Virus record (IMG/VR): IMGVR_UViG_3300046804_001132
Span: 1 to 64,000 of that record
DNA length: 64,000 nucleotides
Strand: one strand, 5' to 3'
Source of the DNA: a virus
Position numbers and translations under genes: made by a program. The notes under the pieces were generated by a model, which searched no databases, was not told the DNA's origin, and worked only from the letters and a program-made list of their open reading frames with translations. Shown piece after piece: positions 8,898 through 58,036 of this stretch; within the stretch, counting starts at the first letter, position 1; every line of letters begins with the position of its first letter.

Positions 8898-10490
8898 ATG
8901 GATATAAATAAAGTTTCTTGGTCCACAGATAAGCAAAACATTAGACTATCAATGCCAATTGCAAAGGTAGATAAGGAACGTCGTATCGTTTCTGGTTTTG
9001 CAACACTAGACAATGTTGACAAGCAAGGCGATATTGTTCCAGCAGAAGCAAGCATCAAGGCTTTTGAAACTTTCCGTGGCAATCTTAGAGAAATGCATCA
9101 GCCAGTTGCTGTTGGCAAGGTTGTTTCATTCAAAGAAGATAAGTATTTTGATCAAGAATCAAAGAAGTTTTATAATGGCGTTTTCGTTTCTGCTTATGTA
9201 AGCAAGGGTGCTCAGGATACATGGGAAAAGGTCCTTGACGGCACCCTCACAGGATTTTCTATCGGTGGTAGTATTGATAAGGCCGATGATATTTATGATG
9301 AGAATCTAGATAAGCCCATTCGTGTAATCAAAGAATATCAACTTAATGAACTATCCTTGGTTGACAATCCTGCAAACCAGTTTGCTAATGTTGTTAGCAT
9401 TGAAAAAGGCGTAGCAACTGGATATCTTACCAAGGCAGTAATTGAAAATATCTTTTGGTGTAATTCTGATGACATTGTTCGTCTTTCAGGAGACAATTCT
9501 TCTGCTTGCCCCCAATGCGATAAGTCAATGTATAATATTGGTTTTGTTGAAAACAATGACATAGATAAGGCAAATGTTATTAAGTCAATTCTTCTTGAAA
9601 CAAAGAGAAAAGAGTTATCAAAGTCAGTAAATGAGAACGCTTATGTCAAGTGTGATAACTTTTACGGCAAGGTAATTCAAATGATCGAAAAGGGATCAGC
9701 AAGAATTTCTAACGACGAAATGGCTCTTTTTGCAAAAGAAAATGACCCTATTGCCGTTATTCGTGTATATTCACAAAAAGAAGGTACAATTGTACCAACG
9801 AGTCGTCGTGTTATTAAGAATGTTTCTTCATTAGAAACAATTAACACGATAAATAAATCGCAGGTAAAGGAGGTAAGCAAAATGGAAGACACAAATATTG
9901 AACCCACCTCTGTAGATGAGGTTGCCAAGTCAGACGTTATTGTTGTTGATGAATTCGATACAGATGTAACAAAGGCTGTAAATATGAATCAAGAGCAAAT
10001 GAATCCTGAACCACAAACTGCATTCGCTGTTAAGGAAAATGCAGAGACAGAAATGGATGATGCAGGAGACAATCTAGCAACAGAGGCCGATCCAAAAGCC
10101 GATGCCGCTGAAGATGCAGCAGAAGGCGAAATGGATGATCCAAATATGAAGGCAATGGGGCCAGGAGGAAAGGGTTATGACGCAGAACTTCATGCCACAA
10201 AGTCAATTCTTTCAGATGTTACTGTTGCCATTTCTAGCCTTGCCGAAACAATGAAGTCCATTAACGCTAAGATTGAGGACCTTAGCAAGGAAGTTACTGG
10301 AGTTCGTGGCGAGGTAAAGGAAGTAAAGGATAACTATGATAATTTTGGTAAGCGTGTAGACGCAGTAGAAAAGGATACCGCTTTCCGCAAGTCTGGCGAT
10401 CTTGGCGAGATCGTGCAGGAAAATCCAGTAATTATGGAAAAATCCCTATGGGACGGTCGTTTCCTCACAAATGCCGACCTATTTAAATAA
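8898..10490 (+). CDS. Prohead maturation protease fused to scaffolding domain
   Basis: RIVSGFAT...DKQGD, LREMH, TGFSIGG, ELSLVDNPAN protease motifs; acidic coiled-coil C-terminal half. The ATG at 8886 lies inside a TATAAT box (8882-8887), so 8898 is the likelier start. Confidence 0.85.
   Translation: MDINKVSWSTDKQNIRLSMPIAKVDKERRIVSGFATLDNVDKQGDIVPAEASIKAFETFRGNLREMHQPVAVGKVVSFKEDKYFDQESKKFYNGVFVSAYVSKGAQDTWEKVLDGTLTGFSIGGSIDKADDIYDENLDKPIRVIKEYQLNELSLVDNPANQFANVVSIEKGVATGYLTKAVIENIFWCNSDDIVRLSGDNSSACPQCDKSMYNIGFVENNDIDKANVIKSILLETKRKELSKSVNENAYVKCDNFYGKVIQMIEKGSARISNDEMALFAKENDPIAVIRVYSQKEGTIVPTSRRVIKNVSSLETINTINKSQVKEVSKMEDTNIEPTSVDEVAKSDVIVVDEFDTDVTKAVNMNQEQMNPEPQTAFAVKENAETEMDDAGDNLATEADPKADAAEDAAEGEMDDPNMKAMGPGGKGYDAELHATKSILSDVTVAISSLAETMKSINAKIEDLSKEVTGVRGEVKEVKDNYDNFGKRVDAVEKDTAFRKSGDLGEIVQENPVIMEKSLWDGRFLTNADLFK
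9882..10490 (+). CDS. Nested in-frame scaffolding protein (internal start in the protease gene)
   Basis: AAGGAGGT Shine-Dalgarno 7 nt before an in-frame ATG (MEDTNIEP...), exactly where the acidic/coiled-coil region begins. Confidence 0.65.
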   Translation: MEDTNIEPTSVDEVAKSDVIVVDEFDTDVTKAVNMNQEQMNPEPQTAFAVKENAETEMDDAGDNLATEADPKADAAEDAAEGEMDDPNMKAMGPGGKGYDAELHATKSILSDVTVAISSLAETMKSINAKIEDLSKEVTGVRGEVKEVKDNYDNFGKRVDAVEKDTAFRKSGDLGEIVQENPVIMEKSLWDGRFLTNADLFK

Positions 10491-10517
10491 TTAAACATAC
10501 ACAGGAGGTGAAAGTCA

Positions 10518-11612
10518 ATGTCACAAGATATTTTAAAGAATCAGCCTGGTCAGAGCGGAGAGTACGGAGGAACAGCCCCTGGGTTGTACCAAGGTCAAGG
10601 TTCCGTTGCATCAGGTGGTATCGGTACAGTTACCGATCCCGCAGCAGGTATTTTGGGAAACATCCCAAATGCTAATTACGGAGATGATACTCCAATCAGT
10701 ATCAATCCCGTAGGTGCTCCAGGTGGTATTCTAAACCCAGAACAGAGCCGTCGTTTTATCGACTACGTTTGGGATGGCACAGTTCTCGCACAAGACGGTC
10801 GCAAGGTAACAATGCGTGCAAACACGATTGAACTTGAGAAGGTCAATGTAGGAGAGCGTGTAATCCGTGCCGCTGCTCAGGCAGATGGTGCTTACACAAA
10901 CGCTGGTGCAACCTTTACCAAGGTTGATCTTACAACCAAGAAGATTCGTCTAGATTGGGAAGTTTCAACTGAGGCATTGGAAGATAACATCGAAGGTAGT
11001 GCAGTAGAGGATCATCTAGTTCGTTTAATGACAAGTGCATTTGCAAACGACCTTGAGGATCTCGCCATCAATGGCGATGGTGGAGCCGATCCATTCCTAG
11101 GAATCATGAACGGTTTCGTCAATCAAACTACAGGTGGTGACTCACATGAGGCCATTGTCACTGTTACAAACAACCAGTGGACCCCAGAAGTTCTTCAGTC
11201 AATCATCAATGCACTTCCTCGCCGTTACCGTGCAGTCCGTAGCGGTTTGAAGTTCTATGCAGGCACAGATACCTTTGCTGGTATCGTTGCAAGCAACGGA
11301 ACTCTTGCCGATTCAGTCTACACATTCGGTGCTCGTGATACATATCTGTCAGGTGCAGATCAGGCAATCGGTAATGCTCGCATTACTCGCGCCCTTGGTC
11401 TTCCCGTCATGGAAGTTCCTTACTTCCCAGCAGATTATGTAGAACTCACATTCCCACAGAACCGCGTATGGGGCTTCCAGCGCGATATCTCTGTAAATCG
11501 TGAGTACCGTCCAAAGAAGGACACCATCGAATACACAGTATTCGTTCGTTTTGGTATCGCTTGGGAAGAATTGGATGCAATTGCTTACGCAGATGCAGCC
11601 TCTGATGCCTGA
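10518..11612 (+). CDS. Major capsid protein (HK97 fold)
   Basis: GGILNPEQSRRFIDYV, EALEDNIEG, FANDLEDLAINGDG; strong AGGAGGTG RBS; follows the scaffold. Confidence 0.9.
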   Translation: MSQDILKNQPGQSGEYGGTAPGLYQGQGSVASGGIGTVTDPAAGILGNIPNANYGDDTPISINPVGAPGGILNPEQSRRFIDYVWDGTVLAQDGRKVTMRANTIELEKVNVGERVIRAAAQADGAYTNAGATFTKVDLTTKKIRLDWEVSTEALEDNIEGSAVEDHLVRLMTSAFANDLEDLAINGDGGADPFLGIMNGFVNQTTGGDSHEAIVTVTNNQWTPEVLQSIINALPRRYRAVRSGLKFYAGTDTFAGIVASNGTLADSVYTFGARDTYLSGADQAIGNARITRALGLPVMEVPYFPADYVELTFPQNRVWGFQRDISVNREYRPKKDTIEYTVFVRFGIAWEELDAIAYADAASDA

Positions 11613-11635
11613 TTAGATAACTGAAATATACGGCG

Positions 11636-11682
11636 GGGAGGCAGCCTAAAAACTGCCTCCCTTAAGTATATTCTGATATAAT
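11636..11682 (+). terminator. Stem-loop after capsid gene, followed by extended -10 TGA-TATAAT (11674-11682)
   Basis: GGGAGGCAG-cctaaaaa-CTGCCTCCC perfect 9-bp stem. Confidence 0.7.
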
Positions 11683-11700
11683 TGAGAAGGAGGTACTAAC

Positions 11701-12168
11701 ATGTCAGAAAATCTAACTGAGTTGACAGTTAAGGAATTGAAGGAATATGCTGATACAAACAGCATTGACCTTGAGGAAGCAAAGACAAAGGCAGACATAG
11801 TTGCAAAGATCAGTGGAGTTACTTCATCAATTACTGAGGTAAAGCCAGAAGAAAATAGCGATCAGATCGTTATTACTGGTCCAGATCAAGCACCAAAGGC
11901 TCCAGCCGTATCTAACCTTAATTCTGAAAAAGACGGAATTATTGGATCAAAGGTTGCCGACAAGCCTGTTGCCAAGGTCAAGCACAAGGAAGAAGCAGTA
12001 GAGAAGGTTGCTATTTGGTCACCCAAGAATTCTTATTGGGAAGGTATAGGAAAGGTAAAGGCTGGCTACAATATTGTCACCAAGGAGGCTTCCGCTAAGT
12101 GGCTTACTCGTAAGGGTGTTAGACTAGCAACACCACAAGAGATGGCTACCTTTTACGGGAAAGAATAA
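11701..12168 (+). CDS. Head-associated protein with N-terminal HeH/Rho-N-like helix-extension-helix
   Basis: LTELTVKELKEYA...KTKADIVAKI motif; AAGGAGG RBS; position after the capsid gene. Confidence 0.55.
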   Translation: MSENLTELTVKELKEYADTNSIDLEEAKTKADIVAKISGVTSSITEVKPEENSDQIVITGPDQAPKAPAVSNLNSEKDGIIGSKVADKPVAKVKHKEEAVEKVAIWSPKNSYWEGIGKVKAGYNIVTKEASAKWLTRKGVRLATPQEMATFYGKE

Positions 12169-13109
12169 TGGAGATTGCTAGATTAGAGCCATTCCCACTT
12201 GTAATAACATATTCTGATCTGGAAAATGATTCAGAGTACAATGTTGTAATTTCTGATGATCATAGTAATGTTCTTGAAAATATTACAGCAACAAGTAATG
12301 GGAGTGGCAATCTAGCAGTCACATTAACAGACTATTTTTCAAAATATGATGACGAATACATGGTTCAAATTTTTGATGCCGATGATGTTCTTGTCGTACT
12401 AGATACGCTTACAATTATGCGTCCATATGTTATTCCTAGTTCTCTTGCTACAACAGAAGAAGAATTAATAAGCATTACAGACTATGAAATGATTGCCCGT
12501 GCGATTATTAACTCTATTACTGGTGGATTTAAGTATACCCTTGAAAGAATTGAGGCAGTTGGACTTGGAACAGATTATTTATCACTTCCATATCGCCTAA
12601 ACAAAATTTTGCAGGTATATGAAAATAACGTTTTAGTATATGACTCAGAAGATCCAGAGTTTGTCAATGTAAGAGAATATTATATTACCCCAGACAAGGC
12701 AACCATTAGTGTTGTTTATCAGGGGGCATGGGATAGAAGACAAGGAAACTCTGTAGACACAGAACTTGCTGCATCAGACTCATTTACACTTCACAATACC
12801 AATGACTCTCCCAACATCATTCAGGCAAGAACTGGCGTGCCAGCATTTCCAAATGGATGGGATTATACAGTTAATGTTGAAGCAGGATGGCCTATTATTC
12901 CGCTTGATATAAAGCAAGCAACAACTCTCATCATTAATGATATTAAGTGCAATAACTTGCCATATGTCAACCAATATATTTCAGAATACAAGAGCGATCA
13001 GTTTAATATCAAGTTTAGCGAGTTGGCATTTAAAGATACTGGAAACAGAATTGCTGACAGAATTCTATCCGCTTATGTTAGACCAATTTATCGTCTTGGA
13101 GTGTTGTAA
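12168..13109 (+). CDS. Head-tail adaptor/connector
   Basis: Synteny; ARAIINSITG...GW-IIPLDIKQAT...TGNRIADRIL pattern of gp6/gp15-like adaptors. Confidence 0.6.
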   Translation: MEIARLEPFPLVITYSDLENDSEYNVVISDDHSNVLENITATSNGSGNLAVTLTDYFSKYDDEYMVQIFDADDVLVVLDTLTIMRPYVIPSSLATTEEELISITDYEMIARAIINSITGGFKYTLERIEAVGLGTDYLSLPYRLNKILQVYENNVLVYDSEDPEFVNVREYYITPDKATISVVYQGAWDRRQGNSVDTELAASDSFTLHNTNDSPNIIQARTGVPAFPNGWDYTVNVEAGWPIIPLDIKQATTLIINDIKCNNLPYVNQYISEYKSDQFNIKFSELAFKDTGNRIADRILSAYVRPIYRLGVL

Positions 13110-13591
13110 TGCAACTGAGTCCATGTTATAGTTTGTTTTTTCCAATGCATGTTGATATTTATTATGCAGTAGAAGAACAAGACGCCTATGGGAAAATGAC
13201 TAAAAAGTGGTTGCTTGATAGGACAGAACATTGCTCAATCTTTTCCATAAGTGATAAGGCTAATGACGAAAACTTTACTTTTGATTCTACTAGAAGAGTC
13301 GGAACAGAATTCTTCAAATTAGAGACAATGCTTTATGGGAGAACTCAAACTGACATTAGAAAGGCTTCAGACGGGGTATACCATCCAGTTTCTCACATAT
13401 TAGTTAAGAATATTCGTGGATTAGAAACAGATCCTTCATTCTTTATTGAAACAGTTGGTGGATATGTAGGACAACCAACTATCTATGAAATAAAAGCAAA
13501 TCAGCCATATGTTGGTCCATTTAACAATATTGAATATTACAAAGTTCAATTAGAAAGATCAGATATTCAAGGGGAGTTGCCAACATGCTAG
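13109..13591 (+). CDS. Head closure / stopper protein (putative)
   Basis: Synteny, size and the QDAYG...W N-terminal motif. Confidence 0.5.
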   Translation: MQLSPCYSLFFPMHVDIYYAVEEQDAYGKMTKKWLLDRTEHCSIFSISDKANDENFTFDSTRRVGTEFFKLETMLYGRTQTDIRKASDGVYHPVSHILVKNIRGLETDPSFFIETVGGYVGQPTIYEIKANQPYVGPFNNIEYYKVQLERSDIQGELPTC

Positions 13592-14259
13592 CAGTAAAGG
13601 TTGATGCAATAAATCTGGGGAATATATTAAAGAATAGCGTTAATTATTCTAATGGCTTCATTGAAGGAGTAGAGTTAGAAAAAATTGAGTTTAACAGAAT
13701 TTTGGGTGGGTATACTGTAGAGGCTTTAGGAAAGTATATTGATGCAAAAGCAAGAATGAACCCTAATGCCCTTCATCACGTTTATGAATGGGATTGTGTG
13801 GGACAGTCAAACTCAAGATTATTTAACTTTAGCGTAAATGCAACTCAGTCTAATATATCAATTACTGGGAAATTCCTTCCATCTAAAACAATGAGTTCAA
13901 CATCTATGCAGACTTTTCCAGACAAGGCAAATGTCATGGAAAATTCAATTGCCATAACTATTAAGCCAAAAAGATCAGATGTTCTAGTATTTGAGGCTGA
14001 TGGAGAAACAGTGTTTACAAGAAATTCTATTTATATAGAACATCCTGGTGGAGATGAAGTTGCTGGAAGTTTTGGCAATACGGTTGATGATTTTTTCAAC
14101 AACTACTTTACAAATTCTTTACTTAGACCCTTTATTGAAAAACTTTCTACTGCAAAAGAATTTTCTGAAAACTTTGCCCAGGGAACTAAGTCTGGCAAAT
14201 CTGTAGGGGTAAAAGCAGGAAGAAAATATTTTGATATCTCTGGAGTTGTTATAGAATGA
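13585..14259 (+). CDS. Neck / tail completion protein (putative)
   Basis: Synteny; ITIKPK...VLVF...VFT...HPGG motif seen in neck proteins. Confidence 0.45.
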   Translation: MLAVKVDAINLGNILKNSVNYSNGFIEGVELEKIEFNRILGGYTVEALGKYIDAKARMNPNALHHVYEWDCVGQSNSRLFNFSVNATQSNISITGKFLPSKTMSSTSMQTFPDKANVMENSIAITIKPKRSDVLVFEADGETVFTRNSIYIEHPGGDEVAGSFGNTVDDFFNNYFTNSLLRPFIEKLSTAKEFSENFAQGTKSGKSVGVKAGRKYFDISGVVIE

Positions 14260-14759
14260 GTCTTTCAGATCTTACCCTTCCAGTATTGACTGTAAATGGA
14301 TACCTTTGGGATACCATGAAGCAACTTGAGCCAACTTTCAATACCACATATGGATCTACCGTTCCATTTTTCCCACTAAGCGATTCTGCAAGCGGATCTG
14401 GATGGGAAAACAAGGCTTATGTAATCTATGACAGAATAATGAGAACAACCTCTAGCCCATTTTACCCAATAAAGAAAGATCATATAATTTACAATATCAA
14501 GGCAAATGATATTGAATCCTTGCAATGGGGATTGGCCGTTCAGTATATTCTTGATAGATGTGATGATGCCGCACAGGATATAAACGAATGGAATAGAAAT
14601 AGAGATACCCAATATAATGTATATTTTCATAATTTGAGGGTATATCAAGAAGATTCTTCAATCAACAGAAACTTCAGCACAAGACCATTCTATATTACTC
14701 AATTCATTGTTGAGGCAGAATATCATTTTACAGACTCAATAGAGTCTATTTTGTCATAA
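14256..14759 (+). CDS. Tail terminator protein (putative)
   Basis: Synteny immediately before the tail tube gene, 167 aa. Confidence 0.45.
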   Translation: MSLSDLTLPVLTVNGYLWDTMKQLEPTFNTTYGSTVPFFPLSDSASGSGWENKAYVIYDRIMRTTSSPFYPIKKDHIIYNIKANDIESLQWGLAVQYILDRCDDAAQDINEWNRNRDTQYNVYFHNLRVYQEDSSINRNFSTRPFYITQFIVEAEYHFTDSIESILS

Positions 14760-14821
14760 AAATGCTATATAATTGTAATGAGGAAACACCGCCAATCTAA
14801 TTAAAGAAGAGGTGAAAAAAT

Positions 14822-15499
14822 ATGGCATATACCCGTGGTGATTCAAAGCAGATTATCGTTGGCGCAGCAGCACTTTTCGTCAGCGTAGATGCAGAATTTG
14901 ACCCAACAAATGCAAGCCCAACACTTCCAGATTTCGACGGTGATGTAAAGTACACAGAGACACTTTCCGATGCAACTACTGTTGTTCGCAACATCGGTTA
15001 CACAAGCAATGGTCTTGAACTACAATTCCAGCCAGATTTCGGTGAAGTACAAGTGGATCAGTTGCTAGACGTTGCAAAACTCTACAAGCAAGGTATGCAG
15101 GTTAACCTAAATACCAGTTTCGCAGAAGCAACACTTGAGAACCTTCTTGTTGCTATTGCAGCACAAGATGCAGATCTTGATGCTGATACACAACTTGATA
15201 ATCCACTAGAAAGTGGAACAAAGGCTGACGCTAGCGTTCTTAATGTAAAGTCAGGTGAAATTGGAGAATGTCCAGTAGAGCGTGGACTCATTGCAGTAGG
15301 CCCAGGTACAGGAGACTGTGCTCCAGGCAACTACATTGAGCGCATTTACGTTGCTTACCGTGCATTGTCAATCGACAATGTTACAGTATCTGCAAAGCGC
15401 GATGCTCCTTCAATGTTCGACGTATCCTTCCGTTTGCTCCCAGCAAACAATGGTTCATACGGAAAGATTGTTGATCGTACCGTTGCAACACCAGCATAA
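14822..15499 (+). CDS. Major tail (tube) protein
   Basis: IIVGAAALF, IGYTSNGL, VDQLLD, FAEATLENL motifs of siphoviral tube proteins; GAGGTG RBS; followed by a terminator. Confidence 0.8.
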   Translation: MAYTRGDSKQIIVGAAALFVSVDAEFDPTNASPTLPDFDGDVKYTETLSDATTVVRNIGYTSNGLELQFQPDFGEVQVDQLLDVAKLYKQGMQVNLNTSFAEATLENLLVAIAAQDADLDADTQLDNPLESGTKADASVLNVKSGEIGECPVERGLIAVGPGTGDCAPGNYIERIYVAYRALSIDNVTVSAKRDAPSMFDVSFRLLPANNGSYGKIVDRTVATPA

Positions 15500-15523
15500 T
15501 TCAAAATAACTTAATAGTCGATT

Positions 15524-15562
15524 GCCCCTCTGGAAACAGGGGGGCTTTCGTCATGCTATAAT
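15524..15562 (+). terminator. GAAA-loop terminator after the tail tube gene, followed by TGC-TATAAT (15554-15562)
   Basis: GCCCCTCTG-GAAA-CAGGGGGGC-TTT. Confidence 0.7.
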
Positions 15563-15592
15563 ATTTTCCACAATAGTTATGAAAGGACTATA

Positions 15593-15928
15593 ATGCCAAC
15601 ATCAGTATATGAAACAACAGAAATTGAACTCCTTGATGGAAGCAAGGTAAAGATGCGTCCATTGAAGATCTCTCTTCTTAGAGACTTCATGAAGAAGTTT
15701 GAAAGCATTCAGCAGGTTGCTGAAGATAATGACAAGTCTATGGATATTCTTATTGACTGTGTTCAGATTGCTATGAAGCAATATGCCCCAGATTTTGCGG
15801 TAGACCGTGAGAAGTTAGAAGACAATATTGATCTTCCTAGCGTATATAAGGTAATTGAGGCAGCCTCTGGAATCAAGTTTGATGATTCGGGAAACGCTCT
15901 GGCGACGGGGATTCTTGGTCAGAACTAG
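15593..15928 (+). CDS. Tail assembly chaperone (gpG-like)
   Basis: Between tail tube and tape measure; carries slippery G GGA AAC near its 3' end. Confidence 0.75.
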   Translation: MPTSVYETTEIELLDGSKVKMRPLKISLLRDFMKKFESIQQVAEDNDKSMDILIDCVQIAMKQYAPDFAVDREKLEDNIDLPSVYKVIEAASGIKFDDSGNALATGILGQN

Positions 15929-16284
15929 ACCTAGTAAGATTAGAATCTGAATTATTCCTTTTAGGAATATGGAAGGATTATGAAGAGTTAGAAAATAATC
16001 TTTCTATGCCAGAACTTACTGCAATCCTCGTCGCTAAACGTGAATCAGATAATCAAGAGAAAAAGTTTCTTGCTGCTTTACAAGGGGTAGATCTTGATAA
16101 AGAGTCTGGTGCGTCTTCTAATGCTTGGGAGGATATGAAGGCTCGCGTATTTAGCGGAGGAAAGGCTGCAAATTCAAAAGATATCCTTTCTTTATCTGGA
16201 ATTAATGCACAGAAAGCAGGTTTTGGTATTGGCGATGGCTTGGAATATTCCAACGCTTCTAATGCAAAAAATCCTTTTGGGTAG
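15889..16284 (+). CDS. Tail assembly chaperone, -1 frameshift extension (gpGT-like)
   Basis: The -1 frame is open from GGGAAAC (15889-15895) through RSGDGDSWSELDLVRLESELFLLGIWKDYEELENNLS into the listed ORF 16006-16284. Confidence 0.75.
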   Translation, partial: GKRSGDGDSWSELDLVRLESELFLLGIWKDYEELENNLSMPELTAILVAKRESDNQEKKFLAALQGVDLDKESGASSNAWEDMKARVFSGGKAANSKDILSLSGINAQKAGFGIGDGLEYSNASNAKNPFG

Positions 16285-16311
16285 TGTATAATTAAACAGA
16301 GGTGCTAATCT

Positions 16312-22710: not shown

Positions 22711-23311
22711 TACATATATTTCTGGCAGAAAAGTTTATGCAAGGCCACAAGCATTGCTTTTTTCAGACAATGCTGGTACGCTAACTGATGGAGTATATTA
22801 TCCAAGTGGCACAGAAAAAGAAGACTTCATTGTTTTGTCTGATCACAATAGAGGAGAAATTTCAATATCTCAGCAAAGAATTGAGACACGACAAAGAATG
22901 ATTAATGGAACAATGCGTTCTTATCATACCGCTGACAAAACAAATATATCTATTGCATGGAGCAACTTACCATCAAGATCATTTAATAGAGATATCTCAT
23001 TCGGTCCTGATGGAAAACCAGTAATGCCAAATCCAACAGATTATGAAAATACTGTCGATGGCGGTGCGGGTGGAGTAGAACTTTTGGAATGGTATCAAAA
23101 TCATTCTGGACCATTCTGGGTATATTTAGCCTATGACAAATATATTAACTTTACAACTGATGGAGTTATAGATGATGATTCATTCGATCATTTAGCAATT
23201 TACAATGATATTAAGCAGATGTATTTTGCATCATTTGACTATACGATTACTAAGCGTGGGGGAACTAATTTTGACTTTTGGAATATTTCCTTGACATTGG
23301 AAGAAGTGTAA
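22700..23311 (+). CDS. Distal tail / tail tip protein (putative)
   Basis: First gene after the tape measure; RIETRQRMINGTMRSYH...ISLTLEEV. Confidence 0.55.
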   Translation: MATSTYISGRKVYARPQALLFSDNAGTLTDGVYYPSGTEKEDFIVLSDHNRGEISISQQRIETRQRMINGTMRSYHTADKTNISIAWSNLPSRSFNRDISFGPDGKPVMPNPTDYENTVDGGAGGVELLEWYQNHSGPFWVYLAYDKYINFTTDGVIDDDSFDHLAIYNDIKQMYFASFDYTITKRGGTNFDFWNISLTLEEV

Positions 23312-28212: not shown

Positions 28213-28213
28213 C

Positions 28214-39025: not shown

Positions 39026-39026
39026 T

Positions 39027-42892: not shown

Positions 42893-43037
42893 GGGAAGCA
42901 CACTACATCACTCTGAGGCTTTTTTGAGAAAGAGAATTCTTGTCGATAAGAAGACTCCAGAAGAAATTGCAAAAGAATGCAACGTAAGTTTACAAATTAT
43001 TTATCGTCAACTAAAAAAGTTTGGATTAAGAAAATGA
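42885..43037 (+). CDS. Small HTH DNA-binding protein
   Basis: KTPEEIAKECNVSLQIIYRQLKKFGL. Confidence 0.65.
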   Translation: MPRGSTLHHSEAFLRKRILVDKKTPEEIAKECNVSLQIIYRQLKKFGLRK

Positions 43038-43270: not shown

Positions 43271-43532
43271 TCCATTCGCACACCTTTATCATCGTGAGTC
43301 AAGTATCGCTATTGAGGGCGGTAGGGTGATTCAAAAAGGTGAGGTCATCAAGATTAAGGGAATAAATGCCACAAAGTTTGTGTTCAAGGAATATGTTCGC
43401 AGAACTGATAGTGGAATAGACTGGATTGACTGCTTTGAATTGGACAAGGGTGTAAGTTGCGGTCAGAGATCATTTAGGAAGGATCGCATTAAGCCCACAC
43501 CAAAGCCAAAAAAGAAAAGAACTAAAATTTAA
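43248..43532 (+). CDS. Hypothetical protein
   Basis: 94-aa basic ORF ending the operon. Confidence 0.5.
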   Translation: MSRKKIVSPFAHLYHRESSIAIEGGRVIQKGEVIKIKGINATKFVFKEYVRRTDSGIDWIDCFELDKGVSCGQRSFRKDRIKPTPKPKKKRTKI

Positions 43533-43539
43533 TAGTTGT

Positions 43540-43613
43540 GCGTCTGTGGTGTAGAGGTAACATGTCATCCTTCCAAGTTGAAGTCGCCAGTTCGATTCTG
43601 GTCAGACGCTCCA
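43540..43613 (+). tRNA. tRNA-Gly (TCC), CCA encoded
   Basis: GCGTCTG/CAGACGC acceptor, loop CT-TCC-AA, T-arm GCCAG-TTCGATT-CTGGT. Confidence 0.88.
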
Positions 43614-43648
43614 AAAATGCGTATTATATCAAATAAATTATCCGACAA

Positions 43649-43677
43649 TTGACACGTTTATTTTACTGTGTTAATCT
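43649..43677 (+). promoter_or_regulatory. Sigma70/SigA-type promoter
   Basis: TTGACA-17 nt-TAATCT. Confidence 0.65.
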
Positions 43678-43709
43678 AGAATGGTGTTGCCGCCGCAAGG
43701 AGGAAACAA

Positions 43710-44252
43710 ATGACGAAAACGAAACTGGTAGGAGGTATCATGGCTATAGCATTGATGTTTAGTTCATCTAGTGCTGTTGCTGCTACCAACGAACAGGTGT
43801 ATGCTAAGTCAAATGCACCTATTGCGACGGAGGCTTTATCAAAGCCTGTCGTAAATGAAGCAAGGGCAAAGATAAAGCCAGAACCTGCCTGTAAGAATTG
43901 GCTTGCCAAATCATTGGCTAAGGCTGGCTTTAAGGGCAGAGGATTGAAGATTGCTTGGGCGATTGCCATGCGTGAGTCTGGTGGCCGTGCCAACGCCATT
44001 TCTTCTACAGGAGATTATGGTGTTTTTCAATTCAACCGCGCAGCATGGGGAAAGGAACCTTGGTGGAATACCTCCAAACTCCTTACCCGTGATTACAATA
44101 TCATGATTGCCTATCGTATCTCACAGCATGGGAAGACATTCTACCCTTGGGATATTGACGGGGCAGGAAGATACAAGGGGCGATACACCCCTAAATCTGT
44201 ATACAAGAAGTATAAGTCTTGGTATAACCAATTTCCAAGCAATTGTGAATAA
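43710..44252 (+). CDS. Secreted lysozyme-fold lytic transglycosylase (SLT/Rpf-like)
   Basis: Signal peptide (MTKTK-LVGGIMAIALMF-SSSSAVA); AIAMRESGG catalytic Glu; GDYGVFQFN; AAGGAGG RBS. Confidence 0.75.
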   Translation: MTKTKLVGGIMAIALMFSSSSAVAATNEQVYAKSNAPIATEALSKPVVNEARAKIKPEPACKNWLAKSLAKAGFKGRGLKIAWAIAMRESGGRANAISSTGDYGVFQFNRAAWGKEPWWNTSKLLTRDYNIMIAYRISQHGKTFYPWDIDGAGRYKGRYTPKSVYKKYKSWYNQFPSNCE

Positions 44253-44321
44253 GTAGTAGGTGGGGTAGGAAACCGAATTTAAATGTAGGTGGCAACATTC
44301 CTACCCCACCACTGCTATAAT
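44252..44321 (+). other. Long inverted repeat overlapping the extended -10 (TGC-TATAAT) of the terminase operon
   Basis: GGTGGGGTAGGAA (44259-44271) / TTCCTACCCCACC (44298-44310), 13-bp perfect stem. Confidence 0.6.
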
Positions 44322-44340
44322 TGTCCCTCTAGGGAGAACT

Positions 44341-44859
44341 ATGACAGACATAATGCTTCATCTTGAAGAAGTTAATACAGTAGCAGCAGAATATATCAAG
44401 GGTAAAAATGAAACTGAGATTTCAAAAGAACTTGATATTCCTCGCGCAAGAGTTTCATCAATGCTTAGAGAATGGAAGCAAATGGCTTCCAACAATGAGG
44501 CTGTTAGAAGCAGAGCAAGAGAGGCTTTGGCTTCAGCAGACCAGCATTACAACTATTTAATTAGACAGGCTTACGAAGTAATTGATGATGCTAACACAAC
44601 TGCCAATCTTGGTGCAAAGACCACGGCAATTAAACTAGTTCTTGATATTGAGACTCGCAGAATTGACATGCTACAAAAGGCTGGTCTTTTAGAAAACAAA
44701 GAACTGGCAGAAGAACTTATTGAACAAGAAAGAAAGCAAGAAGTCTTGATCAATATTCTCAAAGACGTTTCTGCTGATTGTCCACGATGCAAGAATGAAC
44801 TTGCTCGTCGTTTGGCTGCTGCGGCAAGTAGCGAAGAAGTGATTACAATTGACAATTGA
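44341..44859 (+). CDS. Terminase small subunit (putative, HTH)
   Basis: NETEISKELDIPRARVSSML HTH, helical, overlaps the large terminase start. Confidence 0.6.
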   Translation: MTDIMLHLEEVNTVAAEYIKGKNETEISKELDIPRARVSSMLREWKQMASNNEAVRSRAREALASADQHYNYLIRQAYEVIDDANTTANLGAKTTAIKLVLDIETRRIDMLQKAGLLENKELAEELIEQERKQEVLINILKDVSADCPRCKNELARRLAAAASSEEVITIDN

Positions 44860-46639
44860 TTTTAGTTCGTTCCTAGAAGCACTAGATGATTCACCATTTG
44901 AAGAGATTCCAGTAGATTTGGAAACCTTTTTACATTCAGAAAACTTTTTGAATCAACCAGAACTTTCTCAGATCCAAAGAGATCTTGTAGAAGCAATGAG
45001 CCAGATTTATAAAGAAGAAGATCTAATTAGATTTATGGGTGAAAAAGATGGTAGAGCACACTACAAGAAATACACCAAGGGCGAGGTAATTCTTCAGTGT
45101 GGCAAGGGAAGTGGAAAGGATCACACATCAACCATTGGCTGTGCTTACTTAGTTTATAAACTTATGTGTCTAAAAGATCCTGCTAGATATTTTGGCAAAC
45201 CACCTGGTGATGCTATTGATATTATCAATATTGCTATTAACGCACAGCAGGCTAGGAACGTGTTCTTCAAGGGATTCAAAAACAAGATTGAGCGTTGTCC
45301 TTGGTTTGCTGGAAAGTATGATCCCAAGGCAGATAGTGTTGAGTTTGACAAGGCCATAACGGTCTATTCAGGACACTCAGAGCGAGAATCACATGAGGGA
45401 CTAAATCTCATGCTCGCCATTCTTGACGAGATCTCAGGCTTTGCTCAGGAGTCAACAAGCGGCAATGAGAATGCCAAGACTGGTGATGCAATCTATAAAG
45501 CATTCCGTGCATCTGTTGATTCACGTTTTCCAGACTACGGTAAAGTAATTCTTCTGTCATTCCCACGTTACCCAGGAGATTTTATTTCCAAAAGGTACGA
45601 TGAAGTTATTGTTGAAAAGGAAACGGTATTTAAGAATCATAAGTTTATTATTGATCCAGATCTTCCTCCAGACCTAGATGGCAATAACTTTGAAATAGAA
45701 TGGGAAGAAGATCACATCATCTCCTATAAATATCCAGGAATTTTTGCAATCAAGAGGCCAACATGGGACGTTAATCCTACTCGCAGCATTGAAGACTTTA
45801 AGATTTCTTTCTTAACAGATCATGCAGATGCAATGCAAAGATTTGCATGTATGCCATCATTTGCTTCTGATGCTTTCTTCAAGCAAAGAGATAAGTTGGA
45901 AAAGGCAATGAGCATGAGAAATCCCATCGACTCTTACAAGAGGATTGAGCCTACATTTATTCCAGAAGAGGATAAGGTTTACTTCCTTCATGCTGACCTT
46001 GCACAAAAGCATGACAAGTGTGCCGTCGCAGTTTCACATGTAGAGAAATGGGTAGAAGTAAAGTCATTTAATGATTACACTCAGATTGTTCCATTCGTTA
46101 TTGTTGACGCAGTTGTGTGGTGGGAACCTCGCAAGGAAGGTCCAGTAGATTTATCTGAGGTAAAGAATTGGATAATTGACTTCCGTCGTCAAGGATTTAA
46201 TTTAGGAATGGTTACGTTTGACCGCTGGCAATCATTTGATATTCAGCAAGAACTTAAGACAGTAGGTATCAGAACAGATACATTGTCAGTAGCAAAAAAG
46301 CATTATGAGGATTTGGCAATGCTTATCTACGAAGAAAGAGTTGCTATGCCACATATTGATTTACTTCTTGAAGAGATGAGTGAATTGAGAATCGTTTCTG
46401 ACAAGAAGGTCGATCACCCTAGAAAAAAGTCTAAGGACTTGGCTGACGCTATGTGTGGGGCGGTATACAATGCAATTAGCCATACCCCTCGTAATAGGAA
46501 TCAAGAAATAGAAATTCATGACTGGAAATCAATTTCAAGATCTAATGATCTAAAAGAGATGCAGAAGAATGCAATCAAGATTCCAGAAAAGGCACCAGAA
46601 GATATATCAGATTACCTATCTTCATTTGGATTTTTTTAG
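44849..46639 (+). CDS. Terminase large subunit
   Basis: GKGSGKD Walker A, ILDE Walker B, HADLAQKHD nuclease Asp, DHP...SKDLADA. Confidence 0.9.
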   Translation: MTIDFSSFLEALDDSPFEEIPVDLETFLHSENFLNQPELSQIQRDLVEAMSQIYKEEDLIRFMGEKDGRAHYKKYTKGEVILQCGKGSGKDHTSTIGCAYLVYKLMCLKDPARYFGKPPGDAIDIINIAINAQQARNVFFKGFKNKIERCPWFAGKYDPKADSVEFDKAITVYSGHSERESHEGLNLMLAILDEISGFAQESTSGNENAKTGDAIYKAFRASVDSRFPDYGKVILLSFPRYPGDFISKRYDEVIVEKETVFKNHKFIIDPDLPPDLDGNNFEIEWEEDHIISYKYPGIFAIKRPTWDVNPTRSIEDFKISFLTDHADAMQRFACMPSFASDAFFKQRDKLEKAMSMRNPIDSYKRIEPTFIPEEDKVYFLHADLAQKHDKCAVAVSHVEKWVEVKSFNDYTQIVPFVIVDAVVWWEPRKEGPVDLSEVKNWIIDFRRQGFNLGMVTFDRWQSFDIQQELKTVGIRTDTLSVAKKHYEDLAMLIYEERVAMPHIDLLLEEMSELRIVSDKKVDHPRKKSKDLADAMCGAVYNAISHTPRNRNQEIEIHDWKSISRSNDLKEMQKNAIKIPEKAPEDISDYLSSFGFF

Positions 46640-46668
46640 TTGACATAGCCATCAATATGGCATACAAT
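46640..46668 (+). promoter_or_regulatory. Sigma70/SigA-type promoter
   Basis: TTGACA-17 nt-TACAAT. Confidence 0.75.
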
Positions 46669-46690
46669 ATTCACAACATTAGGAGAGAAA

Positions 46691-46867
46691 ATGATTCTTG
46701 CATTTCTTATCATGTCATTAGTAATTTGGACACTATCTGTCATTATGAATCTTTATACCGTTGCAAGTCAGTCAAGAGGGTCAGGCATTACCTTTGTCAC
46801 GGTGCTGTCTCTTATTGTCAATCTTGTTATGGTTACATTCAATATTATTGCCATAGCATCTTTGTAG
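46691..46867 (+). CDS. 58-aa two-transmembrane protein (missing from the ORF track)
   Basis: AGGAG RBS; MILAFLIMSLVIWTLSVIMNLYTVASQSRGSGITFVTVLSLIVNLVMVTFNIIAIASL. Confidence 0.7.
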   Translation: MILAFLIMSLVIWTLSVIMNLYTVASQSRGSGITFVTVLSLIVNLVMVTFNIIAIASL

Positions 46868-46872
46868 GACGA

Positions 46873-46951
46873 CGGCAGGTAGGCAAATTGGTTACGCCGC
46901 CAGTCTTATAAACTGGGAATACGATTGTGGGTTCAAGCCCCACCCTGCCGA
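46873..46951 (+). tRNA. tRNA with TAT anticodon (nominally Ile, reading AUA)
   Basis: CGGCAGG/CCTGCCG acceptor, GGC/GCC D-stem, CCAGT-CTTATAA-ACTGG anticodon arm, GTGGG-TTCAAGC-CCCAC T-arm, 10-nt variable region. Confidence 0.8.
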
Positions 46952-46983
46952 CTATTAGTGATATAATATTTTAGGAGGACAAT

Positions 46984-47373
46984 ATGTTTAATAGAGAAAA
47001 TTTATTTCAAGATTCTGCTGAGAATGCAGAAAGTGTAGTTGAAGACGCAGTTGTTGTTGTAGAAGAGCCAGAGGCTGCTCCAGTAGTTGAGGAAGCAGTA
47101 GCAGTTGAAGAGGCTCCAGTAGAGCAACCAGTTGAGAAGGCTGTTAAGGATTCTGGTAAGTATCCAGGAGTTGCAGCACTATCCGCAGGACAGAAGAATG
47201 AATCAGTATCAAAGGTTCAAAGAGAACTTTCTGCAAAGGGCTTTGCTGTAGCAGTAACTGGAACATATGACAGGGCAACAGAAAACGCTGTAGCACTTTT
47301 CTGTAAGTCAAAGGGCGTACATGCCGATGGGACACAAGTTGGTCCCAAAACATGGAAACACCTTTTTGGATAA
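46984..47373 (+). CDS. Acidic-linker protein with C-terminal peptidoglycan-binding domain
   Basis: VSKVQREL...G...TGTYD...TENAV...F...DG...VGPKTW; AGGAGG RBS; TGA-TATAAT at 46959. Confidence 0.7.
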   Translation: MFNRENLFQDSAENAESVVEDAVVVVEEPEAAPVVEEAVAVEEAPVEQPVEKAVKDSGKYPGVAALSAGQKNESVSKVQRELSAKGFAVAVTGTYDRATENAVALFCKSKGVHADGTQVGPKTWKHLFG

Positions 47374-47375
47374 TT

Positions 47376-47684
47376 ATGCCTTGGAATATTAGACGTTCAG
47401 GATCTCAGTATGAAGTTGTTCAAGAGAACAACGGAAGAGTCATGGGCAAGCATCCAACAAGATCTTCAGCAGAAAGGCAACTTGCTGCATTGTATGCAAG
47501 TGAGCCAAGCGCAAGCAAGATTTCTGATTCAGGTCCAACTCCTCCAATTGATGGATCTGCGCCAATCAGCAACCAAGATACAATAAATCGTAATCCTCAA
47601 ATTATCAATGGCTCAAAGCAAAAGAAGAAAAAGCCACAAGATAATTTCTGGAACGGTTCTTTCTTTCCAAGAAATAATCCATAA
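47376..47684 (+). CDS. Small protein with scaffold-like C-terminal tag (candidate internal head protein)
   Basis: MPWNI...GKHPT...AERQLAAL domain; ends DNFWNGSFFPRNNP. Confidence 0.65.
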   Translation: MPWNIRRSGSQYEVVQENNGRVMGKHPTRSSAERQLAALYASEPSASKISDSGPTPPIDGSAPISNQDTINRNPQIINGSKQKKKKPQDNFWNGSFFPRNNP

Positions 47685-47702
47685 TAATGGTAAAATGAAG
47701 GA

Positions 47703-48011
47703 GTGAGAATGCAATTTCTTGCAGCACTTATTCCTTGGATCGTAACAGCAATATTTCTTTTAATAGTTATAAAAAGAAAGCCACAAGAAGATGATTCTTT
47801 TGATACAGAAAACTGGCCCGAAGAAGACATTGTGAGAGTTGCAGTTATTGACAATAAGGCATATTGGGTATACAATAATACTTTCTATGAGGCTGATGTT
47901 GAGGGAGAAGATCCAGATTTTGAATCTGCTCGCCCAATCAATACCATGAATATGCCACATAAAGAACTTAATAAGTTATTGAATATTCTAGACACACTAG
48001 AAGAAAACTAA
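47703..48011 (+). CDS. Membrane-anchored hypothetical protein
   Basis: N-terminal TM helix; start 6 nt after TGG-TAAAAT. Confidence 0.6.
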   Translation: MRMQFLAALIPWIVTAIFLLIVIKRKPQEDDSFDTENWPEEDIVRVAVIDNKAYWVYNNTFYEADVEGEDPDFESARPINTMNMPHKELNKLLNILDTLEEN

Positions 48012-48032
48012 TAGAATCGAAAGGAAATTTTA

Positions 48033-48377
48033 ATGAACATCGTTGTTCAGGGTACAAAGGAATTTGTTGATTACAACGTCTTTATGCGTGCAATGGGCGT
48101 TGCGCTATCAACAATTGAGGATGAAGAGTTCAATGTTTACTCAGTAGGTCCTGCCCAAATTAATTCATTTACTGCTGAGTTCTGCAATCTTTCAGAGAAT
48201 GGATTAAAGCGACGAGGCATTAAAACACGTTTCTTCAAGGTTCCAACATCATATGTTGAAGAGCATATTTCCGATTTCGACTATTTTGCCTTTCTTTCCA
48301 ATCCGAATCAGCGACCGTCTAAGTTGGTAGCGTCTGCTGAGTTGGCTGGAGTGGAGACTGGCATTTTCCGATACTAG
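48033..48377 (+). CDS. Hypothetical protein (SLOG/YspA-like N-terminus)
   Basis: MNIVVQGTKEFVDY resembles the SLOG V-V-G-R-F-DY start; AAGGA RBS. Confidence 0.45.
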   Translation: MNIVVQGTKEFVDYNVFMRAMGVALSTIEDEEFNVYSVGPAQINSFTAEFCNLSENGLKRRGIKTRFFKVPTSYVEEHISDFDYFAFLSNPNQRPSKLVASAELAGVETGIFRY

Positions 48378-48385
48378 GAGATGCC

Positions 48386-48745
48386 ATGTTGAGTAAGAAG
48401 GATTTTGCGTATCTAAGTGTTGCAAGATATTTTGCAAAAAAGTCTAAGGCAAGAAATACTCATGGCGCTGTCGTTGTAAAGGGCGGCAGGGTTTTGGGTA
48501 CTGGATATAACAAGGATCGAAATCATCCTAAGATAGTCTCTCCAGAGCATATTAAGACTAATTGCTCTATTCACGCAGAAGAGGTTGCTATTCGTGACGC
48601 AGGAGAGGATAATGTTAGGGGAGCAATCATTTATGTTGCAAGAGTAAATCGTCATGGCAATGATAGGGATAGTAAGCCATGTCCACGTTGCAGCAGATTG
48701 ATTGAAAAGGTTGGAATCAAAAGAGTAATTTTCACATCTCAATAG
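48386..48745 (+). CDS. Cytidine/dCMP deaminase-family protein
   Basis: HGAVVV...GYN, IHAEE, KPCPRC zinc motif. Confidence 0.82.
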   Translation: MLSKKDFAYLSVARYFAKKSKARNTHGAVVVKGGRVLGTGYNKDRNHPKIVSPEHIKTNCSIHAEEVAIRDAGEDNVRGAIIYVARVNRHGNDRDSKPCPRCSRLIEKVGIKRVIFTSQ

Positions 48746-48753
48746 GAGAAAAA

Positions 48754-56049: not shown

Positions 56050-56328
56050 ATGTCATCATCATCAGTTATTCAAAATAATTTTACACTCTCCTCAGGAGAC
56101 TCAACACTCGTAAGCCTTGCTGGTTACGACACAGGAATGGATATAACAATTCAGAACCTTTCCAGCGGATATGTTTATCTTGGAACAAGCAACGTTACCA
56201 CATCATCTTTTGGATATCGCATTCCAGTAAATGGTGCATGGTCAGTTAAACTCAAGGGAAACGATGATTTGTATGCAATTGCTCAGAATGATAATTCAGA
56301 GATTTGCGTACTAATGGTTGGTGCATAA
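56050..56328 (+). CDS. Small beta-rich virion-like protein (leaderless)
   Basis: ITIQN...VYLG-SNVT-SSFGYRI...DDLYAI; ATG 6 nt after TGG-TATAAT. Confidence 0.55.
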   Translation: MSSSSVIQNNFTLSSGDSTLVSLAGYDTGMDITIQNLSSGYVYLGTSNVTTSSFGYRIPVNGAWSVKLKGNDDLYAIAQNDNSEICVLMVGA

Positions 56329-56330
56329 TT

Positions 56331-56693
56331 ATGGCTACATTTTATAATGCAACTGAAAGCATTAATGTTCATACCGTTGGAGAAAGCGAAAACATTACCG
56401 TTGGATCAGAGCATAACGGAACTATGTTTGTTTTCAATGGTGATTCCAACAATACACTTTACATTGGTGATTACACCGATGGGCACTATGTGGCAATAGG
56501 AACTGTTATCACAATCTGCACAGCACCATATGGCTCATGCTATCTAGACGTAAACAATGCTAACATTTGGGGTGCAGGATTTAATGATACTAGCAACAAC
56601 TGGTTCTTCCCATCAAACACAATTGGCACTCTTGTCAAGATAGATAATGGCAACACTTGGATGATCAGTGGAGCATCTTTGGGGATTGACTAA
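56331..56693 (+). CDS. Fibre-tip-like beta protein
   Basis: AIGTVITI...GTLVKID-NTWMISG, resembling the C-terminal module of phage fibres. Confidence 0.45.
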   Translation: MATFYNATESINVHTVGESENITVGSEHNGTMFVFNGDSNNTLYIGDYTDGHYVAIGTVITICTAPYGSCYLDVNNANIWGAGFNDTSNNWFFPSNTIGTLVKIDNGNTWMISGASLGID

Positions 56694-57274
56694 TGATTAA
56701 TCAACAGATGATCATTGGTTCCAGTTTCGTTTTTTCAAATTGGCCCACGGCAGTAGATCCTGGTGGAGCAGTTGAATCAATTTATGGTACTCCACAACTA
56801 GGATTTTGGAAGAGACATTATCCATACTACTTTGCTGACAATGTTCCTGGACTTATTGGCGCAACTCCAGATTCCTCTTCAGTAGATACTGTATTTAGTT
56901 TTAGTCAAAATGTTGCAAATAATTTTAGTTTAATGTGGACTGGATATCTTCAGGCTCCTGCAACTGGGGCATATAAATTTAAAACTGTTAGTGATGACTG
57001 TTCATATTTTTGGATTGGTACAGACTCCATAACAAACGTAGGTATATCAAATGCAGACGTTAATAACGGCGGTTTACATGGAACAACTGGTGTAGAATCT
57101 GTTACTCCTGTTCAACTTACTGGTGGACTATATTATCCAATCAGGGCAATGTTTGGAGAACAAGGTGGAGCGGAAACATTCTATATGGAATGGAACTATA
57201 ATAATACTTCATGGGTTCCATTCAACATGGACTATGCTCGTCATAATGCTGACAATACTTTTGACGGCTACTAA
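56693..57274 (+). CDS. PA14/GLEYA-like carbohydrate-binding protein
   Basis: NFSLMWTGYLQAPATGAYKFKTVSDD-SYFWIG...L-GGLYYPIR-MFGEQGG. Confidence 0.75.
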   Translation: MINQQMIIGSSFVFSNWPTAVDPGGAVESIYGTPQLGFWKRHYPYYFADNVPGLIGATPDSSSVDTVFSFSQNVANNFSLMWTGYLQAPATGAYKFKTVSDDCSYFWIGTDSITNVGISNADVNNGGLHGTTGVESVTPVQLTGGLYYPIRAMFGEQGGAETFYMEWNYNNTSWVPFNMDYARHNADNTFDGY

Positions 57275-57295
57275 TTATAGTGCTATAATTTAATC

Positions 57296-58036
57296 GTGAA
57301 CCTATATGACATGTTGGCGCAGCCAGAAAAAGAATTTCATGATTCCCTTGTTAATATTGCAAAAAAGTATGGTCCAATAGACCAAAATCATTCTGGCATT
57401 TGGGTAGGGTATGTCCCAGCAGAACAAAATGAGGATGCTGAAATTGGCGTGATGTGCTGCAACTGTTCAATGTATATGGATAATGGTGGGTGCATGATTC
57501 TTTCATACAAGGTACAAGAGGCAGCCGTTTGTAGGCTTGCCGCAATCCCAGATGAACTTGTTAAGCCAGAGGTAGATGAAGTGACAAAGCAGGCTCCCTG
57601 TTGGGATGGATATGTTCAAAGAGGAATGAAGCCTGGTAAAAATGGACAAATGGTTCCTAACTGTGTTCCTGTCACAAATAAGGCAGATGATGGTCACTAT
57701 CCAAATGCTGGCATGAAGGCTGCTGCTCGTAGGGCAATTGCTTGGAAAGAGCAGGGTAAGGCAAACGGAGCAGGTACTCCAGTAGGATGGACAAGAGCAC
57801 ATCAAATTGTAAATGGAGAAAGACTGTCTCTTGATACAGTAAAGAGAATGTATTCCTTCTTCTCTAGGCATGAGGTTGACAAAAAGGGTAAGGACTGGAA
57901 TAATAGTTCTAATCCCTCTAATGGAAGAATCATGTGGGAAGCATGGGGTGGCGATGCAGGATTTGCATGGTCACGATCAATTGTAAATAAAGAAGAAGCC
58001 AAGAAGGTTTGGCAAGACTCACCATTCTCAAGATAA
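57296..58036 (+). CDS. Multi-module protein with C-terminal tag (candidate internal head protein)
   Basis: Cys cluster, PCWDGY...VPNCVP module, helical GTPVG...RMYSFFSRH...WGGDAG module; ends AKKVWQDSPFSR; leaderless GTG after TGC-TATAAT. Confidence 0.7.
   Translation: MNLYDMLAQPEKEFHDSLVNIAKKYGPIDQNHSGIWVGYVPAEQNEDAEIGVMCCNCSMYMDNGGCMILSYKVQEAAVCRLAAIPDELVKPEVDEVTKQAPCWDGYVQRGMKPGKNGQMVPNCVPVTNKADDGHYPNAGMKAAARRAIAWKEQGKANGAGTPVGWTRAHQIVNGERLSLDTVKRMYSFFSRHEVDKKGKDWNNSSNPSNGRIMWEAWGGDAGFAWSRSIVNKEEAKKVWQDSPFSR

Follow-up and report, generated by a model that had tools for sequence, protein, structure and literature searches.

The S78-type protease of HK97 is reported (Duda, Oh and Hendrix 2013, J Mol Biol) to be directed into proheads by its C-terminal part, as are reporters joined to that part. 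In phage 80alpha, the 16 residues at the end of the scaffold bind the N-arm of the capsid protein, and CpmB of the satellite SaPI1, which has the same motif, binds likewise (PMC5644958). Capsid targeting sequences are also described for T4 (the internal proteins and Alt) and for P1 (the N-terminal packaging signal of DarB), in which a short peptide is enough for unrelated proteins to be taken up by the head and delivered together with the DNA; the T4 peptide is removed by the prohead protease (PMC9024508). Iyer, Burroughs, Anand, de Souza and Aravind (2017) described polyvalent proteins, single chains that unite disparate small domains, often with MuF, portal or other head domains, and for which packaging and injection are predicted (PMC5512222). 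A 2026 paper raises the idea that procapsids might co-assemble cargo-like proteins (PMC13669383). Here we analyse the virus record IMGVR_UViG_3300046804_001132, a single sequence of 72,090 bp with 39–40% G+C, of which bases 1 to 64000 constitute the window. The prohead protease-scaffold fusion of this phage and four to five of its other proteins share a short tail of pattern K-x-x-W-x-G-x(1-2)-F, located 8–13 residues from the C-terminus.

The initial annotation had listed five C-terminal peptides of this kind, and all five are present where it placed them (Table 1). The scaffold tail begins KSLWDGRFL. The gene starts at 47376 (longest open reading frame, ORF, from 47352) and 50636 (longest ORF from 50603) match those of the orthologues. 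The non-scaffold tagged proteins, referred to below as cargo proteins in view of the function proposed for them, share no sequence kinship and are all drawn from one pool of small modules. We label these modules as follows: A, the N-terminus of 47376–47684; B, a four-cysteine domain, which together with C and D makes up 57296–58036; E, the DGSFPI...AIQSVGRA three-helix domain of 50353–50634; F, a module with an EGDFV motif; G, DUF5872; H, Hva1_TUDOR; and I, DUF5824.

A six-frame scan of the window found W.G.F ten times. Four of these occurrences lie in stop-to-stop frames of at least 60 amino acids (aa), all of them 11–13 aa from the stop, and the remaining six fall in frames of 28 aa or less. 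Bases 64001–72090 hold no further W.G.F in real frames. The search was widened to a pool of 4933 unique ORFs of at least 60 aa from 166 sources (160 related loci and six genomes). Within it, W.G.F occurs 73 times within 16 aa of a stop, a zone comprising 10% of positions, and 34 times elsewhere. The relaxed form W.G.{1,2}F is found 133 times within 20 aa of a stop and 41 times elsewhere, with 5.8 expected near the stop at the internal rate. The motif is thus far above chance at C-termini, the enrichment on which the initial annotation had made its proposal depend. Many of the pooled ORFs are orthologues, so these counts represent about five independent families (scaffold, module A, module E, module D and HAD) and not 133 events. 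A pattern that omits the glycine, K.{1,2}W.{3,4}[FLI], is found in the last 22 aa of 103 of 120 module E proteins and 36 of 48 HAD proteins, and in 39 of 4750 control ORFs. One further candidate was rejected as tagged: the 258-aa M15-like protein encoded at 51151–51927 has KTIWKELRV at its end (W 11th from the end), and its orthologues do not keep the W tail.

Table 1 Features of the window that bear on the shared C-terminal tail
Feature	Coordinates	Strand	Remarks
Scaffold C-terminal tail	10440..10487	+	KSLWDGRFLTNADLFK; W at nt 10449, 13th from end
Module A protein, 102 aa	47376..47684	+	long linker and tail DNFWNGSFFPRNNP; W 11th from end
Module E protein, 93 aa	50353..50634	+	tail KFNWSGSFSPFNKG; W 11th from end
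Minimal HAD phosphatase, 129 aa	50636..51025	+	tail KAIWHGAFVKDEYL; W 11th from end
B-C-D protein, 246 aa	57296..58036	+	variant tail KKVWQDSPFSR; W 8th from end
Prohead protease-scaffold fusion, 534 aa	8886..10490	+	N-terminal Peptidase_S78 / S78_2 domain
Extra module in scaffold, residues 255-316	9648..9833	+	homologous to a module of a tail-tagged multi-module protein
Major capsid protein, HK97 fold family	10518..11612	+	Pfam Phage_capsid; candidate docking partner
Portal protein	7233..8864	+	Pfam Phage_portal, E 8e-33; alternative candidate docking partner

The tail is strongly conserved in the scaffold. The survey comprised the 80 best related loci, in 13 of which the gene runs off the end of the contig, and all 67 complete genes encode KS.W[GD]G[RS]FL at this position; six further relatives, reached from the cargo side, keep it without exception (6/6). 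The same tail is present in the cultured Streptomyces phages SparkleGoddess (STWGGRFLGLSDLH) and MulchMansion (SKWGGHFLSVSDIK), and the C-terminal region of the scaffold matches 123 Streptomyces phage records. The cargo genes also retain their tails in relatives at 45–90% identity. In G001, the closest whole relative (59% identical in the protease), W.G.F in long frames is C-terminal in four of four cases, on the same four genes as in the window; its tails QFWDGFFFPRRNP, DIWGGSFAPFKKA and SIWAGAFTKWKTI keep W, G and F with the remaining residues changed. Orthologues of the module A protein in L101, L102 and L122 keep W, G, F, F and P. Among 48 close homologues of the HAD protein the last 22 aa contain K..W in 45 and the strict W.G.F in 23. 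The tail of the module E protein follows LPEDW..K in all 120 best homologues, with strict W.G.F in 35 (last 22 aa) or 27 (last 16 aa). All 21 unique stand-alone module D proteins end in K.W.G[ST][AP]F, and KKVWQDSPFSR, which had initially been regarded as a looser match, is therefore a true variant of the motif. The lysine at W-3 and the tryptophan are the best-kept tail columns in all four families and the neighbouring columns vary. These alignments support the view that the tail is under selection while its flanks drift.

The tail is modular and sits outside the folded domains, as first proposed. The HAD profile match covers residues 3–114 of 129, so the tail is an add-on beyond the HAD core, and 63 of 70 short HAD relatives have no tail, mostly ending just past the domain (the other seven have a W.G-type tail). 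The HAD protein itself starts MATIVDIDGTLL and has the DIDGT nucleophile motif of the HAD superfamily. Its Pfam Acid_phosphat_B match of 23.9 bits is under the cut-off of 27, which most homologues pass, and the homologues carry PF03767 and HAD_PNKP; the protein is predicted to be a minimal phosphatase of this superfamily, of the polynucleotide-kinase-phosphatase type. As modelled by AlphaFold, the module E protein consists of three helices and an unstructured tail (residues 79–93) with a predicted local distance difference test score (pLDDT) below 50; the overall pLDDT is moderate (66.8). In this model the tail has the disorder that would be expected of a linear docking motif. A Foldseek search of the PDB with the module E model returned nothing at E ≤0.001.

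The tagged proteins had been described as unrelated. This holds for their sequences; the set is, however, not arbitrary, as their modules are fused together in relatives. There at least 20 different arrangements of the modules occur, in proteins of 200–543 aa with two to five modules per chain, including A-F-G-E, B-D-E, A-B-H-E and A-F-C-I-E. Module A stands first in multi-module proteins of 212–543 aa, and the tail is found at the end of the last module. Where the modules stand alone, every such protein is tailed (G000 5/5, G001 3/3, G002 2/2 and G003 2/2; G004 and G005 are fragments without stand-alone module genes). The scaffold is itself linked to this pool. Its extra module matches a 543-aa protein of L159 that ends GNWSGSIFDLNPFVK (BLASTP E 1e-7, 37% identity), and the scaffolds of the relatives are about 100 aa shorter than that of the window.

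The same domains are found fused to head proteins in other phages. A search with the HAD protein covered 1.84 billion representatives, and the 150 best matches comprised 80 longer than 160 aa in addition to the 70 short ones. A head domain is present in the same chain in 38 of the 80 longer relatives (Peptidase_S78 in 30, Peptidase_S78_2 in six and Phage_portal in two). Proteins annotated as capsid maturation proteases end in module E in Gordonia phage DalanDe (1633 aa), GX15bay and Actinomycetia phage DSL-LC01, where it is the C-terminal domain, and the module occurs under the same annotation in ChisanaKitsune and Microbacterium phage Cece. Module D is located at the N-terminus of an 836-aa capsid gene in Synechococcus phage S-CBS1, and viruses of Roseobacter, Halorubrum and Halogranum have it in genes annotated as capsid, portal, head morphogenesis or prohead protease. 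Modules B and C appear under protease annotations in DSL-LC01 and Haloarcula virus HSTV-1, and the cultured viruses in which B, C or D occur within head genes are both bacterial and archaeal. Among the Atlas look-alikes of the 246-aa protein are clusters that contain portal, XkdF protease and capsid-plus-S78 domains, which we treat as leads only. The fused forms in DSL-LC01 and GX15bay have no W tail. Taken from sequence comparison, these data support the assignment of the tagged domains as head-associated in other phages. If the tail takes the place of a covalent link, fusion to a prohead protease, portal or capsid protein elsewhere is what one would expect to see.

Several individual chains of this kind are worth recording. 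A ferritin domain lies between HAD and the S78 prohead protease in P0231, P0268, P0276 and P0281, and a ferritin domain is fused to HAD alone in P0188. The 680-aa P0207, a distant HAD relative, joins HAD to a Zeta_toxin kinase domain. In GX15bay a gene annotated as portal (L182 2234–4216) is prohead protease-like, contains an intein-like insert and ends in module E. Module B of the window (57296–57600) has four conserved cysteines arranged C-x2-C ... C ... C; a relative (L212 158–892) gives a weak HiPIP Pfam match (E 0.11), and a neighbouring gene in DSL-LC01 is annotated as a high-potential iron-sulfur protein. Module B may be an Fe-S domain associated with phage heads.

We propose that the tail is a C-terminal prohead-targeting docking peptide that stands in for covalent fusion, an interpretation that we consider probable from the comparisons above, if not strongly so. 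The tail would act as a short linear peptide drawing proteins into the assembling prohead. The protease-scaffold would use it as its shell-binding or core-binding end, and the module A, module E, HAD and B-C-D proteins would co-assemble with the scaffold through it as internal cargo. Elsewhere the same domains would reach the head by covalent fusion; in this lineage, where they are separate genes, the tail would do the job of the fusion. The tail plausibly binds the interior of the capsid, with the capsid N-arm, the scaffold core or the portal as candidate partners. The S78 protease may cut after the conserved lysine (W-3), and the cargo could then stay in the virion and enter the host with the DNA, so that the modules would act inside the head or be delivered from it. 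The observation of a shared tail is solid, and the comparative support for targeting to the head is good.

The N-arm of the capsid protein, PEQ.RRFIDYVWD, does not vary among 25 relatives and is also preserved in SparkleGoddess, whose capsid protein is 41% identical overall. We suggest it, purely as an inference, as a candidate docking site, because it is conserved as the scaffold tail is, including in the Streptomyces phages. Complex prediction with the capsid protein and residues 66–110 of the 47352 reading of module A gave a score of 0.00 in two runs, with alignments of 25 and 4 sequences respectively, an outcome that speaks neither for nor against docking. Searches of the PDB sequences with the capsid profile and with the scaffold gave no match. 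Directly before the invariant N-arm, the capsid protein has a Gly/Pro-rich N-terminal extension of around 70 residues (10518–10730), which is absent from the Streptomyces phage capsid protein.

A number of observations weigh against the docking proposal. The cargo genes are 37–48 kb distant from the head genes. The product of the ferritin/Dps-like gene at 49513–49980 lacks the tail, even though HAD and the S78 protease occur joined to ferritin domains in other phages. Module E tails diverge (MWSSALSPKW, SWGSLFQPKFSK, LWRGSIAGPVDYKI) while the scaffolds are fixed at WGGRFL, and two relatives with normal scaffold tails have the module E tail KSANYSDSRFMKYM, which lacks W. Co-variation of the cargo tails with the scaffold C-terminus, which the initial annotation had suggested as a check, is not seen: the scaffold is near-invariant (KS.WGGRFL) and the cargo tails vary. 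Since the scaffold tails do not change, this lineage offers no basis for such a test. In L118 a tail-like stretch, KSIWSSF, sits between two modules, where it could be a linker or cleavage site instead of a terminal tag. The whole genomes of SparkleGoddess and MulchMansion contain no tagged ORF besides the scaffold, so the scaffold tail does not need cargo; no cultured relative with tagged cargo was found, the nearest cultured Streptomyces phages having the scaffold tail only, and a tblastn search of the phage collection with module A gave no match. The TGNTAWAAT box upstream of the cargo genes, which had been tied to structural genes, also precedes non-structural genes and thus does not link the cargo genes to late expression; it is weakly enriched (19 observed, 11.9 expected, with 7 of 100 shuffles reaching 19). 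Finally, a weight matrix made from the near-invariant scaffold tails alone gives the cargo tails scores of 5.6 and 3.2, within the range of shuffled sequences. The likeness therefore rests on K at W-3, W, G and F and on the near-C-terminal position, and does not extend to the peptide as a whole. The failure of this matrix, and the definition of the motif after the data had been seen, would suit a chance likeness in which the scaffold and small-protein tails are unrelated and merely share W, G and F. We judge this highly improbable, and chance resemblance is close to refuted: about 0.08 C-terminal W.G.F would be expected among 112 crude gene calls (internal rate around 5e-5 per position) and four are seen, and the same genes keep the tail in diverged relatives.

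Other functions for the tail have to be considered. It could be mainly a recognition and cleavage site of the S78 prohead protease, cut after the conserved lysine, with the proteins matured or released from each other and the terminal position left over from fission of a polyprotein gene. The HK97 protease cleaves its own capsid protein after Lys, before Ser-Leu. The preservation of the lysine at W-3, which is the best-kept position after W in all families, fits this idea, as do the internal stretch of L118 and a KKSLFEDF sequence that precedes module E in L159. Such a motif is, however, missing from most of the junctions between modules in multi-module proteins, the motif is overwhelmingly terminal, and trimming 10–13 end residues has no obvious purpose unless they are used beforehand. 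We regard cleavage as the main role of the tail as rather unlikely; cleavage is compatible with docking and could be its second step. Docking might instead occur on the portal or another unique-vertex or packaging component, the tagged proteins being low-copy head-completion or ejection proteins. HAD is fused to the portal in P0319 and P0279, and module D in HRTV-28. Terminase ends contact portals, and the large terminases of L149 (5167–6939), L153 (145–1371) and L157 (1567–3348) end W[SND]GG[FL]R[VI]I, with L in place of F in L157. These terminases belong to one closely related group, though, and three to six chance C-terminal matches are expected in the pool; their W.GGFR[VI]I ends are probably chance matches within that number and were rejected as tags. 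The terminase of the window phage ends SSFGFF, without the motif, protease fusions (36) far exceed portal fusions (2), and it is unlikely that a scaffold numbering hundreds of copies would reserve its one conserved end for just twelve portal subunits. A portal-directed tail is thus unlikely in our estimation. We hold it equally improbable that the tail binds a hub outside the capsid, of host or phage origin (a chaperone, protease adaptor or replication/transcription factor), for shared regulation or turnover. Shared short C-terminal motifs on unrelated proteins are typical of hub binding, the cargo genes are in the accessory region away from the head genes, and the cargo tails vary where the scaffold tail does not. 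Yet the motif that is invariant throughout the lineage is on the scaffold, at the end where scaffolds bind shells, and a cytoplasmic hub does not explain the repeated fusion of the tagged domains to head proteins.

Six copies of the TGnTAWAAT box end exactly 6 nt before the next start codon (47688–47696, 50338–50346, 52179–52187, 56035–56043, 57281–57289 and 60608–60616), which suggests leaderless transcripts, as are common in actinobacteria. Other copies are located 16–30 nt upstream of their genes.

The protease-scaffold scores 27.3 bits (cut-off 24) and 26.7 bits (cut-off 21) for Peptidase_S78 and S78_2, and matches the head maturation protease family phrog_9427 (E 2e-119). These matches and the order of the genes, portal (7233), protease (8886) and capsid (10518), mark it as an S78 prohead protease. 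Relatives of the protein number 594 in viral contigs, and many of the related contigs are metagenome virus records. The window also encodes a tape-measure protein, replication genes, the large terminase (44849–46639) and tail genes. The accessory region contains WhiB, a dCMP deaminase, the ferritin-like protein, a SpoU methylase and nine tRNA genes (Gly, Ile, Arg, Tyr, Thr, Glu, Gln, Leu and Asn; 43540–58114), the majority of which are within 54.1–56.0 kb. Directly upstream of the module A gene is a peptidoglycan-binding or M15-like peptidase gene (46984–47373), and the same neighbour is found in L103, L105, L108, L118 and L129. The nearest cultured relatives are Streptomyces phages of the Stanwilliamsviridae, whose capsid proteins are around 41–44% identical. 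Together with the WhiB gene they point to an actinobacterial host, and the phage is probably one of freshwater-type actinobacteria.

Few head-loading signals have been defined (T4, P1 and the HK97 protease), and in none of these is the end of the scaffold known to be copied at the C-termini of several other proteins of the same phage. Should the docking proposal be correct, the tail offers a simple sequence rule by which head-internal and injected proteins could be predicted across hundreds of genomes of uncultured freshwater actinophages. It would also account for the frequent fusion of small domains (the minimal HAD phosphatase, Hva1-TUDOR, DUF5872 and DUF5824) to prohead proteases, portals and capsid proteins, open to direct test the link from scaffold to cargo that has been proposed between encapsulins and phage procapsids, and provide a short tag for packing proteins into actinophage capsids. 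A wider interpretation is possible, though we lean against it: the scaffold-derived tail of about 12 residues may be a general cargo-loading peptide for the capsid in a large lineage of uncultured actinobacterial phages, by which any small protein could be packed, clipped by the head protease and injected with the DNA, with evolution switching freely between the tag and covalent fusion to protease, portal or capsid. In that event the tail would be to phages what cargo peptides are to encapsulins, and would connect scaffold and cargo as a living link.

The closest described parallel is that of 80alpha and CpmB, where, as in the window phage, the scaffold shares a short motif at its very C-terminal end with a protein that is otherwise unlike it. 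CpmB, however, is a satellite protein that competes with the scaffold and alters the size of the capsid, whereas the tagged proteins here are the phage's own, have enzyme-like or unassigned domains and carry, as a putative docking motif, K..W.G.F without the RIIK helix-and-hook. The T4 and P1 signals are N-terminal (about 10 residues in T4) and are not copies of a scaffold end, while the tail of the window phage is C-terminal and resembles one. In HK97 no separate cargo genes are known to reuse the signal of the protease, and its partner there is the capsid delta domain, which the capsid protein of the window lacks. Polyvalent proteins are multi-domain chains, as are the fused proteins of the relatives and the B-C-D protein of the window; the other three cargo proteins have single domains, and the modules are here split into separate genes, each with its tail. 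Neither the zincin metallopeptidase hub nor a MuF domain was seen in the window phage, and the available part of the polyvalent protein account (PMC5512222) describes them without a shared terminal peptide. A literature search found no description of the motif, with most subscription journals and supplements outside its scope. Encapsulins resemble the window phage in having a C-terminal peptide on diverse enzymes and a shell of the HK97 fold, docking in the window phage being our proposal. The encapsulin cargo-peptide consensus probably differs from the tail; moreover, portal, terminase, tape-measure and tail genes are all present, and the cargo genes are remote from the capsid gene, so the locus does not have the features of an encapsulin. 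The system would function like these parallels and, judged by their defining features, is a member of none. What is new is that the tagged proteins are the very modules that other phages fuse into tailed multi-module proteins or weld onto head proteins.

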